This document shows positions 9,627 to 58,934 of a DNA stretch of 64,000 bases, piece after piece. Numbering within the stretch: the first letter of the stretch is position 1; each line of letters starts with the position of its first letter. The notes beneath the pieces are model-generated. The model ran no database searches and was not told the DNA's origin. It saw nothing but the letters and a program-made list of their open reading frames with translations. Origin of the DNA: Thermoplasmatota archaeon (lineage in GTDB: Archaea; Thermoplasmatota; E2; UBA202; JdFR-43); contig JAWAYL010000002.1 of the NCBI GenBank assembly GCA_038818725.1, positions 1,346 through 65,345 of the forward strand, in the 5' to 3' direction. Made by a program: the position numbers and the translations under genes.

Positions 9627-12625
9627 AAATACTTGGCTTGCTTTGCAACTGGTGCAGTTATGCAGGAGCGGATTTAGCTGGCGTTAGTAGATTTCAATAT
9701 CCTCCAAGCATAAGAGTTGTTCGTGTGATGTGTTCAACAAGAGTTGAGCCATCTTTTATTATTAAAGCATTTTTAAAAGGAGTTGATGGTGTTCTTGTGG
9801 GCGGATGCCATCTTGGAGATTGCCACTATGTTACTGGAAATTACTATACCATAGGCAAGATTTATGTTGCAAAAAAATTGCTTAAATTTGCTGGAATTAA
9901 TCCCTCTCGTTTAAGACTGGAGTGGATTTCTGCAAGTGAAGGAGAAAAATTTGCAAGAGTTGTTGAAGAATTTACAAGAGAAATTGAAGAGCTAGGCCCT
10001 TTAAAAGATGAGCTAAAAGATGATAATATGCTTAAAGTTGCATATAATGTCGCTAATAAGCCAAGAGCAAGAATAATTGCTTCAAAGCATAGAATGCTTA
10101 CATTTTTTGGAAATAAATATAACGAAATATATACCAATTATGAATTTGATAGGATAAGTGATGAAATTTTAAAAGATGAAATGATTACAGAAGCAATAAA
10201 ATTTTTATTAAAGGATGAAAAAAATTTTGAGGAAATTGCTGAAAGAATTGGAGTTAATGGAAAAACCTTATATTTTTACCTTCTTGATTTGATAAAAAAG
10301 GGAGAAATATCATTTAGAGAAGAAAATGGGAAATATCTGTTTTTTGTAGCAGATAAAAAGGAGGAAAAAATTGAGACATTTATACCAAATTCAATCATAA
10401 GCAAGGAGGCGCATCTAATATTTGGAGCAGGCGCAAAAGGAATAAACAGAGCAATTGAAATAGCAAGAAAAGGGGAAAATGTTGTTATTGTTGAAAGATT
10501 TCCTTCAATAAATAAATATATTATAAGAAAGCATGCCTCCTCTTTTGAAAATGAATGTAAATATGAGGAATTTTTAAATTTAGTAAAAGAAGGAAAAATA
10601 ACTGTTTTAAATAATTCAATTGTAAAAAGCATAAGAGATGGAATTGTAAGAATAATAAAATATCCATCTCGTATAAATGAAAATTGCAATAACTGCAATA
10701 TATGCTATGAAGTTTGCCCTCTTAAAACAGTTGATAGAGAGCAAACTCTTTTTTCAAGAAAGGCAGTTTATGGAAGAAACGGCATTCCATGCACCTTCTT
10801 TTTGGAGAGAGAAAGCCCGTTTTGCCAGACAAATTGTCCAGCACATGTAGATGTTCGTGGGTATGTAGCGAGAATTGCTGAAGGAGATTTTGAAGGAGCA
10901 ATAAATGTTATAAGGCAAAGATTGCCATTACCTGGTGTGCTTGGAAGAGTATGTCCCCATCCTTGCGAAGAGTTTTGCAGAAGAAACGGGATTGATGAGG
11001 CAATTTCAATAAGACTACTAAAGAGATTTGTCGCTGACTGGGAATGGCAAAACAAGGGAATAATTTATCTTGGAAAAATGCCAGTAAATGAGAATAATAA
11101 GCGTAGGGTTGCTATAATTGGCTCTGGTCCTGCTGGCTTAACTGTTGCATATGAACTCGCCAGAATTGGCTACAAAGTTAAAATTTTTGAAGCATTACCT
11201 GTTGCCGGCGGGATGCTTGCTGTTGGCATACCTCCTTATAGGCTTCCAAAAGATGTGCTTGCTAGAGAAATAAATGCGATTCTTGAAATGGGGGTTGAAT
11301 TGCAGTTGAATTGCAAGGTAGGAAAGGATATATCTTTTGATGAGGTGAGAAAAAATTTTGATGCGGTATTTATTGGAATTGGTGCACATAAAAGCAGGAA
11401 AATGGGAATTGAAGGAGAAAATTTGCGGGGTGTTATATCAGGTATTGATTTTTTAAGAGAAGTAAATATATATCCCGAAAATGTAAGAGCAATTATTTCT
11501 GGAAAGAAAGTAGTTGTTGTTGGCGGTGGAGATGTTGCAATAGATGCAGCAAGATGCGCAATAAGATTTGGATGCGATGTAACAATTTTATATAGACGAA
11601 GCAGGGATGAAATGCCAGCTCGTGAAGAGGAAATAAGATATGCAGAGGAGGAAGGGGTTAATTTTCGCTTTCTGGCAGCTCCATTAAAAATTATTGGGAA
11701 AGGAAGCGTTGAAAAAATCGAATGTATAGAAATGGAGCCTGGTGAGCCAGATGAAAGTGGGCGCAGGAGGCCTGTGCCGAAAAAAGGAAGCGAATTCTTC
11801 ATTGAAGCAGATGTTGTTATCTCTGCAATTGGCCAGCAACCTGATTTATCATTTTTACCAGATGAAATAAAAAAAGATGGATTAATTGTTGTTGATGAAA
11901 ATACTGGGGCAACTTCTTTGCCAGGAGTTTTTGCAGGAGGAGATGTAGTAAGTGGCCCTTCAATAGTAATAGAAGCGGTTGCATGGGGAAGAAGGGTTGC
12001 TAGAGCAATAGATGCATATTTAAATGGCAAAAAAATAGAATTTGATCCTATTGAAAGAGATATAAATAGGGCAATTGCAAGTTATGAAGATGTTGAACTA
12101 ATGAAAAGAAATGTTGTTTTATCAATTTTTAAAAAAGAAAATAGGAAAAATATTGAAGAAATAAGCATCGATGAAAGATTAACAACATTTAAGGAAGTTG
12201 AAAAGGGTTTTGATAAAAAAACAGCAATAAGTGAGGCTTCTCGCTGCCTTGCCTGTAGGGCTTGCCTTGGCTGTGGGATATGTGGAAATGAATGCATTAG
12301 AAATGCTATTGATTATGAAGAAAAGGAGGAGGAGATTGAAATATTTGCAAAATCAATAGAAATTGATCCAGAAATAAAATTTAATTATGAATTTTTCACT
12401 CCTTTTGAAATTGAAGATATGCTCCAGCTAGGAATAATTATGAATTTTAAAGGAGAAAAAATAAAGAAGATATGCTTTTTAAATTTTGAGGAAAACAAAT
12501 ACTTCAATGAATTAAAGAAAAAAATTTTAGAAAATGGAATAGAAATTGGCGAATCAGATTTTAAAGTAGATTTCCGCTTTTATGAAACAGATTATTATAA
12601 AAAAATTAAAAAAATGGCTAGCTAA
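9623..12625 (+). CDS. Fusion protein: MvhD (N-terminus) - linker/possible wHTH - GltD/NfnB-like NADPH:FAD oxidoreductase with 4Fe-4S domains - ~120-aa C-terminal tail
   Basis: Residues 1-130 (MKILGLLCNWCSYAGADLAGVS...GGCHLGDCHYVTGNYY) match MvhD. Residues ~330-900 match the GltD/NfnB family: CPAHVDVRGY...RVCPHPCEEFCRR, RVAIIGSGPAGLTVAYELA, VVVVGGGDVAIDAARCAIRFG. A 4Fe-4S motif CLACRACLGCGICGNEC lies near the C-terminus. 1000 aa. Confidence 0.75.
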   Translation: MKILGLLCNWCSYAGADLAGVSRFQYPPSIRVVRVMCSTRVEPSFIIKAFLKGVDGVLVGGCHLGDCHYVTGNYYTIGKIYVAKKLLKFAGINPSRLRLEWISASEGEKFARVVEEFTREIEELGPLKDELKDDNMLKVAYNVANKPRARIIASKHRMLTFFGNKYNEIYTNYEFDRISDEILKDEMITEAIKFLLKDEKNFEEIAERIGVNGKTLYFYLLDLIKKGEISFREENGKYLFFVADKKEEKIETFIPNSIISKEAHLIFGAGAKGINRAIEIARKGENVVIVERFPSINKYIIRKHASSFENECKYEEFLNLVKEGKITVLNNSIVKSIRDGIVRIIKYPSRINENCNNCNICYEVCPLKTVDREQTLFSRKAVYGRNGIPCTFFLERESPFCQTNCPAHVDVRGYVARIAEGDFEGAINVIRQRLPLPGVLGRVCPHPCEEFCRRNGIDEAISIRLLKRFVADWEWQNKGIIYLGKMPVNENNKRRVAIIGSGPAGLTVAYELARIGYKVKIFEALPVAGGMLAVGIPPYRLPKDVLAREINAILEMGVELQLNCKVGKDISFDEVRKNFDAVFIGIGAHKSRKMGIEGENLRGVISGIDFLREVNIYPENVRAIISGKKVVVVGGGDVAIDAARCAIRFGCDVTILYRRSRDEMPAREEEIRYAEEEGVNFRFLAAPLKIIGKGSVEKIECIEMEPGEPDESGRRRPVPKKGSEFFIEADVVISAIGQQPDLSFLPDEIKKDGLIVVDENTGATSLPGVFAGGDVVSGPSIVIEAVAWGRRVARAIDAYLNGKKIEFDPIERDINRAIASYEDVELMKRNVVLSIFKKENRKNIEEISIDERLTTFKEVEKGFDKKTAISEASRCLACRACLGCGICGNECIRNAIDYEEKEEEIEIFAKSIEIDPEIKFNYEFFTPFEIEDMLQLGIIMNFKGEKIKKICFLNFEENKYFNELKKKILENGIEIGESDFKVDFRFYETDYYKKIKKMAS

Positions 12626-13565
12626 TTTCTCCCGCCCAATATGGCTTCCTCACATATTCATATATCTTTTGAGATGCTATTGCTCCATGCGCTGCGCCAA
12701 CAATAAGCAGGCGGAAAGCGCCTCGCACTATATCTCCAACCGCAAAAATTCCCTCAACATTTGTGCGCTGCATTGCATCAGTTATTATATAACCTTTTTC
12801 ATCTGTTTTTATTCCAAGCTCAGCAAACATTTCTGTATTTGGTTTTAATCCAACTGCAAGAACTACTTTATCTACCTTGAGTGTTTTTCTTTCTCCTGTT
12901 TTGTTGTTGAAAATAACTGCTTCCTCAACTTTATCTTTTCCTCTTATTTCTTCAAGCTCTGTATTCAACAATATATTTATCTTACTTTCCTCCATTTTCT
13001 TTACATTTTCATCTAAAGCCCTGAATCTATCTCTCCTATGGATTATTGTTATTTCTTTAGCAAGATCAACTAAATCAAGGGCTGCATCAACAGCGGTATC
13101 TCCTCCTCCAACAATGAGAACCTTGCTATCTATAAAATCTTCTCTATGAGTAACATAGTAATAAACACCCTTATCTCCTTTATTGAATTTACTTTCTCCT
13201 TCTATACCAAGTTCCTGAGGGCGTGTTCCAGTTGCTATAACAATTGTCTTACCATGATATTCATTCTCTTCTGTTTTCACAACTCCTCCTTTTTCTATTT
13301 TAATGACTCTTTCTCTTACCATTTTAATATATGGACTTTCTCTTGCTTGCTTTATCCATTTTCTTACAAGTTCAATTCCAGTTATTCCTTCTGGAAAGCC
13401 AGGATAATTTGGTATTACCTTGCTTGGATATAGTGTTGCTGGCAAACCACCCCATTTTCCTCCTTCAAGTATAAGTGTTTTAAGCATTCTACTTGCACAC
13501 ATGATAGCAGTTGTCAATCCAGCTGGTCCGCCTCCAACAACTATAACATCATACATTTCTTCCAT
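12618..13565 (-). CDS. Thioredoxin reductase-like flavoprotein (TrxB/FNR family) lacking the redox-active CxxC
   Basis: MYDVIVVGGGPAGLTTAI and a second nucleotide-binding motif KVLIVGGGDTAVDAALDL. No CxxC motif anywhere, so possibly a YumC-type ferredoxin:NADP reductase. Convergent with the hdr/mvhD operon, overlapping it by 8 nt. Confidence 0.65.
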   Translation of the reverse strand: MEEMYDVIVVGGGPAGLTTAIMCASRMLKTLILEGGKWGGLPATLYPSKVIPNYPGFPEGITGIELVRKWIKQARESPYIKMVRERVIKIEKGGVVKTEENEYHGKTIVIATGTRPQELGIEGESKFNKGDKGVYYYVTHREDFIDSKVLIVGGGDTAVDAALDLVDLAKEITIIHRRDRFRALDENVKKMEESKINILLNTELEEIRGKDKVEEAVIFNNKTGERKTLKVDKVVLAVGLKPNTEMFAELGIKTDEKGYIITDAMQRTNVEGIFAVGDIVRGAFRLLIVGAAHGAIASQKIYEYVRKPYWAGEIS

Positions 13566-13627
13566 GTTTATCCCAAAATATATACAAATTTAATTTATTA
13601 TTTTTGTGGAAAAAGCAGAATAGCAGC

Positions 13628-13695
13628 GTAGCGATTAACTTAATTTCTATTTTCTTTGTTGTAGCATCCCTTCCTGAAAGAGAATCAGGAGGGTC
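13628..13695 (+). repeat. Copy A of a conserved upstream element containing palindrome TCCTGA-N7-TCAGGA
   Basis: GTAGCGATTAACTTAATTTCTAT...GTTGTAGCATCCCTTCCTGAAAGAGAATCAGGAGGG. A near-identical reverse-complement copy lies at 33938-34047. Ends 63 nt before tRNA-Lys. Confidence 0.7.
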
Positions 13696-13757
13696 TTATT
13701 TCTTTACACTGCCAATTTCCACGTGAAAAAATATATATATCAAAGCATTTTTTCATA

Positions 13758-13849
13758 GGGCCTGTAGCTCAGCTAGGTAGAGCACCTGGCTTTTAACCAG
13801 GTGGCCGAGGGTTCGAAATGGCGCTGCCACGAAAATCCCCCCAGGCCCG
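13758..13849 (+). tRNA. tRNA-Lys(TTT) with a probable ~17-nt non-canonical intron in the T-loop
   Basis: Acceptor GGGCCTG/CAGGCCC, D-arm GCTC-AGCTAGGTA-GAGC, anticodon arm CCTGG-CTTTTAA-CCAGG. The T-arm GAGGG-TTCGA[ATGGCGCTGCCACGAAA]AT-CCCCC only closes if the bracketed segment is removed. The insert contains a TGGC-GCT-GCCA hairpin. Confidence 0.6.
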
Positions 13850-14417
13850 CTAGTCTATATATTAGGGAGTGAAAGAAAAAGATTAAATTTCTTTCCTTAT
13901 AGTTGGATGGGATGAAATGGGTTGGAAAGAACGAGTAGAAGATTTGAAGATGAATAAAGGAGCACACTATTGCTCTTTTTGAAGCAACATATGATTGAGG
14001 TAATAAATTTGCAAATCAGCTAAAATTCTAGCTTTTTAAAGGATGAGATAGCTTTATTTTATATCCTTTCTTTTCTAGCCATTATTGGCTAATATAATTG
14101 CTATTTCAATGCTTGAAAATTCTTTAAAAAAATTCAATTAATGCTCTTTTCTCGTTCTAATTTTACCTTCTTTTATTATTTCAGTCGTTACTTTTACACC
14201 CATTTGATATGCTTGGGCTTTATCATGCTATCAACCCTATCGAAAACAAATTGAAAACGGGACAAAAATATTAAACTGTCTTTTCTTAACAAATCATCAT
14301 ATTTTAGGTATGAAGAGTTGCTCTTTCCTCTCTCACTAAGGGAACATTGCAGTAAGGACAAAATCCTTAAATACCAAAAAAGTATTACATTTTGATAAAA
14401 AAGTAATATGTGATAAG

Positions 14418-14684
14418 ATGTGGCTTATAACAACGCTTATATTTGCAACTATTGCAACCTTGCTTCATTTATTAATTAAAAAGCATAAGTTAGATTATCT
14501 TGCCCTCATGCTTTGGGGAGCATTTCTTATGATATTAGTTGATCATGTGCTTGGCTATGAAGGAGGAAATTTTTTGGAATATGAAACCGAAGGATTAATA
14601 AACAATGGAATTATTCTAGGAATTGTTATGGTAATTCCAGTTGTTGCAATATGGCTTGTGCTTTTAGCAATTGAAAAAAAATAA
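14418..14684 (+). CDS. Small 2-TM membrane protein (paralog 1 of tandem pair)
   Basis: 88 aa, two hydrophobic helices. Shares an ...LxAMLWGxxxMxxVxH... core with the next ORF. Confidence 0.4.
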   Translation: MWLITTLIFATIATLLHLLIKKHKLDYLALMLWGAFLMILVDHVLGYEGGNFLEYETEGLINNGIILGIVMVIPVVAIWLVLLAIEKK

Positions 14685-14697
14685 GAGGTGATGAAAA

Positions 14698-15009
14698 ATG
14701 GCATGCTTCCTTGTGCCGGCAGCAGCAGGCGCAGCAACGCTTGCAATAAGAAAAAAGATACATAAAAAATATAGAATGGGTCTGTTGAATGCTATGCTTT
14801 GGGGTGGGGTTGCAATGCTTGCGGTTGAGCATATAGCCCACAGAGAGATAGTTCCTTATCCACCATTCCTTACCGCTGGTTTGAATGAAGTGCTTCCAGA
14901 AATGCTGAGAATTGGTGTACCGATGACATTGCTAATATTCTTTGTGTGGGCAATAATTGTTGCAATGGCGGAATTAATACCAAAGAAGAAGGAATTAAAA
15001 AGTGAATAG
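14698..15009 (+). CDS. Small 2-TM membrane protein (paralog 2 of tandem pair)
   Basis: 103 aa. LLNAMLWGGVAMLAVEHIAH aligns with LALMLWGAFLMILVDHVLGY of the upstream ORF. Confidence 0.4.
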   Translation: MACFLVPAAAGAATLAIRKKIHKKYRMGLLNAMLWGGVAMLAVEHIAHREIVPYPPFLTAGLNEVLPEMLRIGVPMTLLIFFVWAIIVAMAELIPKKKELKSE

Positions 15010-15381
15010 GCTAAAATCAAGAATTTCATAAAAATCTTTGATTTTGCTGGAGTAAAATAGATGACTCTTGCATTTGCAATCACTTGAGCCAAATTTAGGA
15101 ATGGCTTGAAAGGAGAGAAATTTTTTTGCTATTTTGCACTCTTCCTTAAATTTGCTTTCTTTATAAAAAATTTTTTTTATTTTTCCTTCTTCGAGTAAAT
15201 AATCAATATGCCATCTTTTTCTTTTTTCTTTTCTTAAATGCCTTTCAATTCTTTTTTCAATGCTGTTCATTGCTGAGCCAATATATGCATAGTATCCTTT
15301 TTTAAAATAAATCTCTCTTTTTCCAATTTTTATTTTTTTATCATTTTCAATTTCGATTATAAGAATATAGCTTCCTTTCAT
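14995..15381 (-). CDS. GIY-YIG (Uri superfamily, COG1833/DUF123-like) endonuclease-domain protein
   Basis: SYILIIE...GKREIYFKKGYYAYIGSAMNSIEKRIERHL is the GIY...YIG...R...H pattern. Confidence 0.55.
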   Translation of the reverse strand: MKGSYILIIEIENDKKIKIGKREIYFKKGYYAYIGSAMNSIEKRIERHLRKEKRKRWHIDYLLEEGKIKKIFYKESKFKEECKIAKKFLSFQAIPKFGSSDCKCKSHLFYSSKIKDFYEILDFSLFTF

Positions 15382-15883
15382 TTTCTTTATTTATTTCTTC
15401 GAATCTGTAATTTTTCTACAATCTCTTCACTAATTCCTCTTGCAATTCTTTCCATCTTATTTTCCCATTTTTCCCTTAAAACAATTAACGTTTTTATAAC
15501 ATTGAATAGCTTAAAAATTTTATATATTGCATCATTTTTTTTCCATGAGAATATAATTATTCAATTTAATAAACTTTAGGAAAACAAGATTTTCCTCGAA
15601 ATGATTGGCCAAGCTTTAGAGATATATCTCCTTTAGGCTAAGAAGGCATTGGCTGAGTCAAAAGATTTGAAAGAATGCATTGTTTTATATCTTTCTTCTT
15701 CTCTTTAGAGAGATAATCTCTGCATATAAGTGAAGAACTTTCCAAAATTAAAGGCAGCAGACTATTCCACCATATGCAAAAGATTGCAAAAGATGGTGCA
15801 AATATGGACAAAGATGGTTTGCAGAGACATTCTTATCAGGAGTTAAAAGAATATTTGGAGAAACAACTAAAACCTTTCACTAA

Positions 15884-16885
15884 TTGTTCAACAAAGCAGA
15901 AAATGAAAACATGTTTATAATATCACGAAATGTGTGGAAAATCGGAGAACAAAATATTTTGAAGCCAAATGTTATTGGTTTGAAGCCAAATTTATATACT
16001 TCCGTGCTATTTATTAGCATGTTCTATTATATTTTGCCGCTTCTTGCTGGATTAATTGCTCAATATATAGATGGAATGCTTGGCATGGGATATGGCGTTT
16101 CTTCTTCCTCACTTCTAGTTGCCGCCGGCTTTATGCCTGCTCTTGTATCCGCATCGGTTCACATGGCTGAAATATTTGTTTCATTCACGTCTGGAATAAG
16201 TCATCTAAAATTTGGAAATGTTGATAAAGATATTTTATTGCCTTTAATAATTCCAGGCGTGGTTGGAGGAATGCTGGGCGCCTATATTCTTTCAGATATA
16301 ATTCCTGAAAAAGAGGTTAAGATAATTGTTAGCTTTATCCTCCTTTGTTTGGGAATTGTAATATTTTTAAGATTTTACTTTGGGAAAATAAAGAAAAGAG
16401 AAGGAAATTTCTCAAAAAGATTCATAATTGCTGTTGGTTTTGCTGGTGGACTGCTGGATGCGATAGGCGGAGGAGGATGGGGACCAGTATGCACATCTTC
16501 GCTTGTCGCATCAAATAAAAGGAGGCCAAGGAAAATAATTGGTTCTGTAAATTTTGCTGAATTTTTTGTAACAATATCAATAACAATAACATTCGCGATA
16601 ACTATTGGAATAGAAAATTTCCTTTGGCATATAACCCTGCCACTAATAGCAGGAGGAGTTATAGCAGCTCCTTTAGCCGCATATACTTGCAAGCGAATTC
16701 CATCTGTTTTACTTGGTAGCCTTGTAGGAATATTACTTACGCTATTAAATGCAAGAACAATAATCTTATCCTTTATATCAATAAATTTTGTAGTAATTCT
16801 GACTATACTTATTTCAATTTTTGCATTCCTCCTTATTATTAAATATGTAAAGCCGGAGAGCAGAATTTTGGAGGAAGAAGAATGA
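15884..16885 (+). CDS. TauE/SafE (TSUP, DUF81) family membrane transporter
   Basis: Multi-TM, with a G-rich helix MLGMGYGVSSSSLLVAAGF and GLLDAIGGGGWGP typical of TSUP. The true start is probably downstream of the annotated ORF start. Confidence 0.6.
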   Translation: MFNKAENENMFIISRNVWKIGEQNILKPNVIGLKPNLYTSVLFISMFYYILPLLAGLIAQYIDGMLGMGYGVSSSSLLVAAGFMPALVSASVHMAEIFVSFTSGISHLKFGNVDKDILLPLIIPGVVGGMLGAYILSDIIPEKEVKIIVSFILLCLGIVIFLRFYFGKIKKREGNFSKRFIIAVGFAGGLLDAIGGGGWGPVCTSSLVASNKRRPRKIIGSVNFAEFFVTISITITFAITIGIENFLWHITLPLIAGGVIAAPLAAYTCKRIPSVLLGSLVGILLTLLNARTIILSFISINFVVILTILISIFAFLLIIKYVKPESRILEEEE

Positions 16886-17061
16886 AAATAGATATGAAAG
16901 ATGTTGAATATATAACTGAGACAAGTGTAACAATAAGAGGAAGTAGAAGAAGAACAACTCTGCCAAAACATATAGTTGAAAAAATTGGAATAAAAGATGG
17001 AGATAAAATAAGATGGATACTATTTAAAGACGGAACAATTTATGTCATGAAAGTAGAGTAA
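16882..17061 (+). CDS. AbrB/SpoVT-family swapped-hairpin DNA-binding mini-protein (59 aa)
   Basis: Not in the ORF track (under 60 aa). My manual translation gives MKIDMKDVEYITETSVTIRGSRRRTTLPKHIVEKIGIKDGDKIRWILFKDGTIYVMKVE. The start overlaps the stop of the TauE-like gene. Confidence 0.5.
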   Translation: MKIDMKDVEYITETSVTIRGSRRRTTLPKHIVEKIGIKDGDKIRWILFKDGTIYVMKVE

Positions 17062-17145
17062 ATCATCTTCTATTTTTAGCAAGCCATTCCTTTTCAGTAT
17101 TTCTGAAGTGAAAATTTAGAAAAATAAGATAAAGAGGGAGGAGGT

Positions 17146-17418
17146 TTATCTGGCGAGGTAAATTTCTATACAAGAAACATTTACTTTTCCGCCCTGCTCA
17201 TTCGTTAGTTCTTCTGTGAATATCTTTACATCCTCTATTTTTGCATCTGGCACAAATCTTCTTCTGACAATCTCTGCCACATCGACTGCTCTGGAGATTG
17301 CTCTTCCCCTCGCCTTTATTGCTACCTTGTTCGCTCCAGAGTTCAGCTGTGTTATTGCTGCCAACACATAATTCATAGGTGGTTTATTTCCCACAAAGAC
17401 CACATTTTCCTGTTGCAT
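17146..17418 (-). CDS. albA: Alba chromatin/RNA-binding protein
   Basis: [47 protein letters not shown] is a textbook Alba core. Confidence 0.9.
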
Positions 17419-17630
17419 TTTGATCCCTCAGCACACAATATAAAATCAAAATATAAAAGTATCGGTCTCGCTACAAAGCTGTTAACTTAGCGAATTTTTT
17501 CGAAAAAATAAAGCATTCCATCCCTTGTTTTAAAGGATGAAAACATGACAGATGGAATGCAATTATTAAAACTAGAAGTGCTATAGGCATGCTCTCTTAA
17601 ACCTATAAATATATCAAATTTATTATAGAT

Positions 17631-31646: not shown

Positions 31647-33869
<2,223 letters not shown>

Positions 33870-33937
33870 ATTAATTTCTTTTGCTGTTCACAGTGGGGTA
33901 GTGTCAAGAATTTGAAAATTTAAAAAATAAGAACTAC

Positions 33938-34047
33938 CCCCTCCTGATTCTTTTTCAGGAGGGATGCTACAACAATTATTAGAAATTAATTCCAAAAAAT
34001 ATTTTTCGTTGGGATAAAAAGAAGATAGAAATTAAGTTAATCGCTAC
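33938..34047 (-). repeat. Copy B (inverted) of the conserved upstream element, with a ~50-nt insertion relative to copy A
   Basis: Its reverse complement reads GTAGCGATTAACTTAATTTCTAT...(50 nt)...GTTGTAGCATCCCTCCTGAAAAAGAATCAGGAGGG. Ends ~69 nt before the cdc48 start on the minus strand. Confidence 0.7.
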
Positions 34048-34501
34048 CCTCTAAGCAGGAATTTCTTTGCGGAAAGTAAATCTTAGAGATTTTGAGGAAT
34101 TTAGCCACGAATCTTTGAACAATGGTATCATAAACTAAGCCAAAAATACAGGCGTTGTATTGCAATAGATGAATAAAGATTGGAGAGGATAGATGTAGAT
34201 ACATAGATATTTGGGAATAATGGTAACAAAATGGAGAACTTCGATTGATGTAATAAAATTTGTGAGGAAAATTCTCGTATATTGTGAAAATAAACCAATC
34301 AAAATAGCTACACCTCCATGTAGAGAGGCATTGCAAAGAATGGGCTTAAGATATGAAAATGAAACATTTGGAGAAGGAAAGCGTCGAAAGATGACACTGC
34401 CTTCGTTCATACCAGCTGTTCCTCGATTAATATTTTTTCTTAATGCTTTCAAAAATAACTGTCACAATACATTTTTATATTCCTTCTTTATTGCTTTTTC
34501 A

Positions 34502-34936
34502 ATGACTACAGCATATGATGTACCTGCAGAGCCATTGATAAAAAGGCTTGCCGAGAAGCTGAAAAATGAATTTAAAATAGAAGCACCTGAATGGGCTAAA
34601 TGGGTAAAGACAGGAATACACAAGGAAAGACCACCTGAAAATCCAGATTGGTGGTATATAAGGGTTGCCGCAATATTGAGAAAAATTTATATGCGCGGCC
34701 CTATTGGAACATCTCGCTTAAGGGGCTTCTATGGGGGAAAAAGAGATAGAAGAAATGCTCCTTATAGGCATGTAAAGGGGAGTGGTTCAATAATAAGGAA
34801 AGCACTTCAACAACTTGAGAAAATTGGGCTTGTGGAGCAAATAAAAGGAAAAGGAAGGAAAATAACTCCGAGAGGGCAATCACTTGTTGATAATACCGCT
34901 CATGAACTTGCAAGTGAAATAGGAAAACTTATATAG
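34502..34936 (+). CDS. rps19e: Ribosomal protein S19e
   Basis: MTTAYDVPAEPLIKRLAEKLK...PDWWYIRVAAILRKIY...GGKRDRR. The ORF-track start at 34211 is an extension. I place the start at the ATG at 34502. Confidence 0.85.
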   Translation: MTTAYDVPAEPLIKRLAEKLKNEFKIEAPEWAKWVKTGIHKERPPENPDWWYIRVAAILRKIYMRGPIGTSRLRGFYGGKRDRRNAPYRHVKGSGSIIRKALQQLEKIGLVEQIKGKGRKITPRGQSLVDNTAHELASEIGKLI

Positions 34937-58825: not shown

Positions 58826-58934
58826 CCCGGCGTAACTCAGACTGGTAGAGTGGCGGACTGTAGTTGCATCTCTTGGGCTATAACCCACCGCCGCGGAAAT
58901 CCGCAAGTCGCTGGTTCAAATCCGGCCGCCGGGA
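58826..58934 (+). tRNA. tRNA-Tyr(GTA) with ~35-nt intron at the canonical 37/38 position
   Basis: Acceptor CCCGGCG/CGCCGGG, D-arm ACTC-AGACTGGTA-GAGT, anticodon stem GCGGA with CTGTAG, then the intron (TTGCATCTCTTGGGCTATAACCCACCGCCGCGGAAA), then TCCGC. T-arm GCTGG-TTCAAAT-CCGGC. Confidence 0.8.

Follow-up and report, generated by a model that had tools for sequence, protein, structure and literature searches.

Relics of an IS6-family insertion sequence upstream of tRNA-Lys and cdc48 in a Thermoplasmatota archaeon

Two matching spacers

The DNA considered here, called the window throughout, is a 64-kb stretch from an A/T-rich archaeon (G+C ~32%). Two of its intergenic spacers share sequence. 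The first lies between a thioredoxin-reductase-like gene (TrxR; 12618-13565, minus strand) and tRNA-Lys (13758-13851, plus strand), the second between cdc48 (31647-33869, minus strand) and the gene for ribosomal protein S19e (plus strand); the matching stretches are referred to here as copy A and copy B, respectively. Two 'Candidatus Thermoplasmatota' MAGs (GCA_038839295.1 and GCA_038863095.1) encode a protein identical to the one neighbouring the element. A preliminary description of this DNA had noticed two blocks common to the spacers, and both withstand closer inspection. An exact-match search finds the 23-mer GTAGCGATTAACTTAATTTCTAT twice in the window, at 13628-13650 (+) and, identical, at 34025-34047 (-), a match that arose by chance in 0 of 100 shuffles. 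The second block (13658-13693, +, against 33938-33970, -) is near-identical, the differences being one extra T and one G/A, and it contains the inverted repeat TCCTGA-N7-TCAGGA, which a pattern search confines to these two places in the window. The repeat lies where it was said to lie, but its stem is longer than stated (9 bp, CCC(T)TCCTGA / TCAGGAGGG), and the homology extends further than the coordinates first given, from 33897 to at least 34411 in copy B and over ~13612-13713 in copy A. What had been read as an insertion of ~50 nt in copy B is really a 43-nt deletion in copy A, because every full-length relative carries that stretch.

The tRNA-Lys(UUU) gene is real, as had been proposed, but atypical, escaping ARAGORN and scoring 31.4 bits in Rfam over 13758-13815 (the 5' part) only. 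Its acceptor, D and anticodon arms are canonical, and the ~17 extra nt in the T-arm region (GGGTTCGAAATGGCGCTGCCACGAAAATCCCC) are probably a non-canonical intron. A second long tRNA match lies at 58826-58934.

What, then, are the two stretches? Are they a control site common to tRNA-Lys and cdc48, a small RNA, or the end of a mobile element? The last alternative is the one borne out: the shared sequence is the 5' (left) end of an IS6-family element, and both copies are very probably non-functional relics of one insertion sequence (IS) of this family, lodged in the TrxR/tRNA-Lys and cdc48/S19e spacers. An IS profile search and tblastn found no further copies in the window besides A and B. Small structured RNAs (C/D box, H/ACA, split-tRNA half, CRISPR repeat or leader) were considered and rejected, there being no box motifs and weak folds; read towards tRNA-Lys and cdc48, which was the orientation of the preliminary description, the two copies have unremarkable fold z-scores (-1.55 and -1.71). 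Apart from the tRNA, Rfam returned no match at gathering score or at E<=1.

The intact element in other genomes

A genome collection (one genome per species) was scanned with a single hairpin pattern, ATCCC-N0-1-TCCTGA-N7-TCAGGAGGG, which copies with mutated stems would escape; it yielded 7 loci in Thermoplasmata-type MAGs, several of them at contig ends, with the source genome not among the matches. All 7 align with copy B for ~180 nt and then run into a conserved gene on the opposite strand. A metagenome scan added 14 more copies, next to unrelated genes and often at contig ends, from sources that include hot springs and hydrothermal sites. Viral contigs gave no matches to the element, and a viral origin was rejected on that ground. 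Across genomes, therefore, the sequence occurs in many copies unrelated to particular genes, the very distribution that the preliminary description had set against a regulatory site. For replicative transposition through cointegrates, as in the IS6 family, the only signs are indirect, namely multi-copy occurrence and contig breaks at the element.

The conserved gene is intact as a 212-aa ORF in two loci, L017 (4429-5142) and L006, and frameshifted in L008, L010 and L014. The L017 protein scores 137.5 bits against the NCBIfam model NF033587, 'IS6 family transposase' (cut-off 125), and matches Pfam DDE_Tnp_IS240 (PF13610) with an E of 9e-12. Its database homologues bear the NCBI name IS6 family transposase and mostly sit on ~1-kb contigs, as collapsed repeats do. 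Element lengths range from 703 to 718 bp (714 bp in L017, 716 bp in L010, 713 bp in L006 and 703 bp in L025), and both termini of the intact copies are inverted repeats 17-19 nt long, (A)GGnnnTGTCAAGAATTT, in which GG forms the tip and TGTCAAG the core. Direct repeats flank the copies in L010 (GAAAACTG) and L017 (CAAAAGAA); they measure 8 bp when one extra complementary base pair is counted in the inverted repeat (AGG tips), and 10 bp when GG is read as the tip. The L014 copy has no target duplication.

These properties are those of the IS6 family, for which PMC7986276 gives 700-890 bp, inverted repeats of 15-20 bp with GG tips and 8-bp repeats, and which it describes as abundant in archaea, with MITE derivatives. 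Like archaeal IS6 (IS6/IS26) members, the element has a single DDE transposase with an N-terminal helix-turn-helix, above the NCBIfam IS6 cut-off, and its 703-718 bp and its 17-19-nt inverted repeats with GG tips agree with the family, as would a target duplication of ~8 bp; the duplication is also readable as 10 bp if the tips are GG, not AGG. Unlike intact IS6 elements, the window holds dead fragments only. They are ordinary genomic debris.

Anatomy of the left end

The IS runs in the reverse of the orientation first assumed. Read in its own direction, the left end consists of the inverted-repeat tip, an A/T-rich stretch GAAAATTTAAAAAATAAG, the hairpin CCCCTCCTGA-N7-TCAGGAGGGG, a spacer of 6-7 nt and the start of the transposase gene, ATGCT..., of which the shared sequence takes in the first ~30 codons. 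The hairpin has a stem of 9-11 bp, and its 3' arm, TCAGGAGGGG, includes the Shine-Dalgarno (SD) sequence GGAGG of the transposase gene, which in 17 copies outside the window stands 8 nt ahead of a conserved ATGCT start. The encoded N-terminus reads M-L-(H/Y)-Q-L-I-E-L-V-R-K-K-N-I-F-R-W-D-K-K-K-I-E-(I/V)-K-L-I-A-T.... Translations of the intact copies and of the window identify the 23-mer as the codons for IEIKLIAT, in the N-terminal helix-turn-helix region, and the 35-nt block of the preliminary description is the start codon, the SD in the 3' arm and its complement. The stem is identical in 16 of the 17 copies outside the window, the non-coding 5' arm being as invariant as the SD arm, and the loop varies. 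Archaeal promoters follow a BRE/TATA consensus, and on this basis the A/T-rich GAAAATTTAAAAAATAAG, kept in all intact copies, is a putative BRE/TATA promoter of the transposase gene. Archaeal transcription usually starts ~23 nt (about 21-27 nt) downstream of the TATA-like box.

Among otherwise near-identical IS copies the 7-nt loop is found in both orientations: TTCTGCA in L008 and L010 against TGCAGAA in L011, L014 and L028, and TTTTGCA in L017, L022, L033 and L034 against TGCAAAA in L023. Loci L010 and L014 come from the same MAG and have opposite loop orientations. Such flips amount to small inversions, recurring between the 10-11-bp arms, of the kind that hairpin or template-switch events would produce. 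In the window the loops lie at 13675-13681 (copy A) and 33948-33954 (copy B).

Copy B, a decayed transposase pseudogene

Copy B is a decayed IS6-family IS on the plus strand, spanning at least 33897-34411 by nhmmer, tblastn and alignment. With a profile built from 5 full-length IS copies, nhmmer matches 33897-34395 (+) to model positions 2-579 of 716 (E 7e-92), and tblastn with the intact transposase gives an E of 7.7e-33 with stops present. Most of the transposase gene survives in broken form, interrupted by some in-frame stop codons and shortened by about 10 internal deletions. The 3' continuation to ~34411 matches IS positions ~645-680, and none of 500 shuffles attained the score of this piece against the L010 copy. 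The left terminal inverted repeat, GGGGTAGTGTCAAGAATTT (33895-33913, +), has the GG tip and the TGTCAAG core and agrees with the inverted repeats at both ends of the intact L017, L010 and L014 copies. It is followed by the conserved A/T-rich GAAAATTTAAAAAATAAG (33914-33931, +), between inverted repeat and hairpin, and by the hairpin itself, CCCCTCCTGA-TTCTTTT-TCAGGAGGG (33938-33963, +), with GGAGG in its 3' arm; the predicted fold of the IS 5' end has an MFE of -25.2 kcal/mol and a z of -4.19. From a comparison of 19 copies the transposase start codon (ATGCTAC...) is placed at 33964-33966 (+), where the ATG abuts the SD because the 7-nt spacer of all other copies is missing. The 23-mer, encoding IEIKLIAT, follows at 34025-34047 (+).

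No right inverted repeat is recognisable in copy B. A candidate tip at 34390-34401 (GGCAGTGTCA) was rejected, as it equals the transposase codons for SVERWLTAF and the pattern occurs at chance frequency. The possible target duplication is a doubtful pair, CTGTTCACAGT / CTGTCACAAT, bracketing unique DNA, and no clean target duplications were found around the window copies.

The relic has left its mark on annotation. The longest ORF of S19e (34211-34936, +; 241 aa) starts inside copy B, while the true start is at 34502. The public protein (P0001) has 238 residues and its orthologues 144; its N-terminal ~94 residues are read-through of the transposase pseudogene and its start is mis-annotated, the extension arising because the reading frame of the relic runs into the gene.

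Copy A, a stub at the other spacer

Copy A is a stub of ~100 nt on the minus strand (about 13612-13713), detected by nhmmer --max and tblastn. The former aligns 13714-13664 (-) with model positions 18-78 (E 0.0016), and the latter finds 13 codons, KKIEIKLIATLLF, at 13656-13618. What it retains is the left tip, the hairpin, the start codon and codons ~22-34; three stretches are deleted internally, among them the 43 nt kept in copy B, and the stub breaks off after the 23-mer. The remnant of the left inverted-repeat tip, GGCAGTGT joined to AAAG (13702-13713, -), is as in the L010 copy, with ~19 nt behind the tip gone. The hairpin lies at 13668-13693 (-) and reads CCCTCCTGA-TTCTCTT-TCAGGAAGGG in IS orientation, with one bulged base; the 23-mer at 13628-13650 (-) covers the same transposase codons. 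The stub is identical in four conspecific assemblies except for one 2-nt indel and is therefore no assembly artefact.

How are the two relics related? The 7 nt between SD and ATG are absent from both (13664-13670 and 33961-33967) and present in 17 of 17 other copies, so that in both relics GGAGGG runs directly into ATGCTAC, against GGAGGGGATGGAAATGCTAC elsewhere. This common loss argues that A and B derive from one already crippled copy, or that they were homogenised by gene conversion.

Could the two stretches be a MITE or another non-autonomous element that is still mobile? MITEs of the IS6 family do exist, according to PMC7986276, and a relative bears a two-ended derivative of ~290 nt in the same cdc48/S19e spacer. 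However, copy A has one damaged terminus and copy B no recognisable right inverted repeat, and there are two copies in 64 kb, neither with a clean target duplication. This reading is very unlikely, and a MITE is excluded for A and B because neither has two usable ends. The derivative just mentioned (locus L036, 5678-5967, in GCA_014361195.1, a 92% relative) belongs to the same IS family; its left and right ends are recognisable, it has no hairpin and no transposase gene, and it is MITE-like or strongly decayed.

An empty site in relatives and the question of a shared control site

Two relatives (L037 and L038; S19e 90% identical) likewise have cdc48 and S19e as divergent neighbours, with a spacer of 104 nt. 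Their homology to the window halts at 33887 and restarts at 34468, leaving 24 nt against 580 nt, so the DNA missing from them is 33888-34467 of the window. The promoter-proximal sequence of their cdc48 (GCAAAAGAAATTAATAT...) is that of the window. With the same promoter and an empty site in these relatives, the element is an insertion beside a pre-existing cdc48 promoter.

This bears directly on the operator that the preliminary description had proposed, in which a dimeric factor binding TCCTGA-N7-TCAGGA upstream of tRNA-Lys and cdc48 would co-regulate both. In its favour, the palindrome is perfect, and each copy adjoins an A/T-rich promoter region, ~45-70 nt ahead of a gene start. Yet the palindrome belongs to a transposable element with unrelated neighbours at 20 other loci, relatives without the element have conserved the cdc48 promoter and gene, and the 23-mer conserved along with the palindrome codes for transposase; the surroundings of copy A are different in each close relative, and two copies are all that 64 kb contain. 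We consider such an operator hardly credible. Nor does the similar distance to the downstream gene amount to a conserved spacing: between IS tip and gene start there are 45 nt for the tRNA and 28-49 nt for cdc48, and these distances are alike because both tips adjoin the native BRE/TATA region on its upstream side.

A breakpoint upstream of TrxR

At the TrxR loci of four relatives the upstream DNA is different and tRNA-Lys is not there; no copy of this tRNA was found at the orthologous TrxR loci. The homology of the TrxR upstream region to these four stops at 13606-13611, where copy A ends. In each lineage the conserved TrxR promoter block, CCACAAAAATAATAAATTAAATTTGTATATATTTTGGGGATAAAC-ATG, is adjoined by different DNA: MazE/TauE in L046 and L043, PGI in L041, another ORF in L045, and the relic with tRNA-Lys in the window. 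Across 5 close genomes sharing a TrxR of 91-96% identity, the spacer ahead of the TrxR promoter has 4 different neighbours, which makes it a hot spot of rearrangement.

Beyond the tRNA, blastn of L046 and L043 shows a 2.7-kb segment of the window (14361-17061; two small ORFs, DUF123, TauE and a MazE-like gene) to be inverted relative to both. In these relatives the segment directly abuts TrxR; its other side is an SNF transporter in L043 and lies beyond the contig end in L046. The window has extra DNA at both junctions, 754 nt at 13607-14360, with relic A and tRNA-Lys, and 535 nt at 17062-17596, with an Alba gene (17146-17418, -). Copy A thus lies exactly on a synteny breakpoint, at one edge of the inverted segment. 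A second IS relic was sought at 17062-17596 and nothing significant was found there, the Alba gene alone occupying the interval. Between 15383 and 15434 the HTH_24 regulator gene of the relatives is mostly absent from the window.

Did the IS bring about this inversion? Two inverted IS6-family copies 20 kb apart, one of them at the edge of an inverted 2.7 kb, are reminiscent of IS26-type intramolecular replicative transposition, and inversion is one outcome of intramolecular transposition in the IS6 family as set out in PMC7986276. Unlike an IS26-type inversion, the 20-kb interval between A and B is itself not inverted as a whole, and the other junction of the 2.7-kb segment is without IS trace. 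Since both junctions carry extra genes (tRNA-Lys and Alba), a single IS-mediated inversion is not enough. A 20-kb mobile element with A and B as terminal repeats, or an IS-flanked 20-kb inversion, was rejected because the relatives share the cdc48/S19e adjacency and are collinear with the window over the 6 kb left of it.

What the hairpin would do in an intact element

As both window copies are dead, the hairpin has no visible present function there. What might it do in an intact IS? Most likely it would keep transposase translation off in read-in transcripts, as analogy with bacterial elements suggests. Read-in transcripts arriving from neighbouring genes would hold both arms, so that the SD would be clamped and not translated, and transcription from the IS's own promoter, starting ~23 nt downstream of the TATA-like box, would begin in or after the loop and give an mRNA with a free SD. 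Predicted folds are consistent with this: in an RNA beginning at the IS tip the SD lies in an 11-bp stem (-27.6 kcal/mol, z -2.6), the SD-containing stem being the predicted MFE stem, and in an RNA beginning in the loop the SD is left open.

Precedents come from bacteria. A 5'-UTR stem-loop of IS200 sequesters the SD and blocks 30S binding, as has been shown experimentally (PMC4513863). The element described here is like IS10, IS50 and IS200 in that its left-end inverted repeat would pair with the SD in the transposase 5' leader; unlike them, it has an archaeal host, a putative promoter of BRE/TATA type and a transposase of another family. In IS10 and IS50, as the 1998 review by Mahillon and Chandler reportedly states, only read-in transcripts contain both arms. 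An SD-covering 5'-UTR hairpin is not among the IS6 family features that a term search of PMC7986276 brought up.

Comparison with a sister IS (L047-L052, bases ~355-415; transposase 58% identical) adds a second case. Its inner SD hairpin is CTCCCT-GTATA-AGGGAG, and through an outer 14-nt inverted repeat, AATAGGTCGAG(C/T)AT / ATGCTCGACCTATT, the start codon and the first four codons pair with sequence lying upstream; the leader has a z of -4.19, and in one copy a change to a G-U wobble is seen. When the main subfamily and the sister IS are aligned by eye on the SD, they appear to keep the structure while the sequence changes. There is no covariation within the main subfamily, in which the stem never varies, and the sister subfamily provides the only compensatory sign. 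A 50%-identical relative (L053) has neither hairpin nor SD, and the device is therefore not universal in the family. The simple picture of a start in the loop may fail in some members, because the start predicted for L047 would remove the outer stem and not the inner SD hairpin.

Does the palindrome act in the IS as DNA rather than as an RNA clamp, as a cruciform or a site for transposase or a host protein? The arms are invariant and not covarying in the main subfamily, and the loop is found in both orientations, which argues that strand-switch events readily occur at the DNA palindrome and that selection acts against neither orientation. On the other hand, the 3' arm falls exactly on the SD, and the distance to a conserved ATG is right, and the sister IS, with an SD hairpin of other sequence and a start-codon stem, fits an RNA-level constraint better than a sequence-specific protein site. 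IS6 transposases, moreover, are described as acting on terminal repeats (PMC7986276). We regard a DNA-level role as quite unlikely, and the SD clamp in read-in transcripts as the preferred reading.

A different RNA can be imagined on the opposite strand. In archaeal transcriptomes, antisense RNAs to the 5' ends of insertion sequences are common, and a BRE/TATA-like string lies within the codons for KKNIFRW (GCGAAAAATATTTTT). It could drive an RNA of ~70 nt, in the orientation of the preliminary description, that would cross the start codon and the SD hairpin, end at a T-run and repress the transposase in the manner of IS10 RNA-OUT or IS200 art200; copy B could still produce an orphan version. 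On that strand the hairpin is indeed followed by TTCTTATTTTTT, the promoter-like string is perfectly conserved in the main and 76% subfamilies and present in copy B, and RNAs against the IS200 5' end are established (PMC4513863). But the conserved residues K-K-N-I-F in an A/T-rich genome fully explain the 'promoter', which has changed in the 58% subfamily, is missing from the 50% relative and was lost from copy A, and the T-run is a mere complement of the A-rich promoter region of the sense strand. The lack of an Rfam family match and the unremarkable fold z-scores on this strand, given above, also speak against such an RNA, which we consider unlikely. Equally improbable in our estimation is a two-layer module that would combine a sense anti-SD clamp, with the element's own promoter firing into the loop, and a short antisense RNA that starts from the A/T-rich string in codons 10-16 and is terminated by the same hairpin together with the T-run. 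If it were real, the 5-7-nt loop flips would mark frequent hairpin extrusion or template switching, and next to cdc48 an orphan antisense RNA might still be produced from relic B.

Significance

The identification of the relics removes a false lead, as there is no tRNA-Lys/cdc48 regulon. It also explains the 94-residue N-terminal extension of the public S19e protein and flags the spacer upstream of TrxR as a rearrangement hot spot in this lineage. For students of mobile elements, it brings to light an IS6 member from archaea whose leader hairpin clearly covers the SD, together with a sister element that achieves the same with a different sequence. The pair would offer a convenient system for asking whether the 'protection from read-in expression' of bacterial elements works with archaeal promoters.
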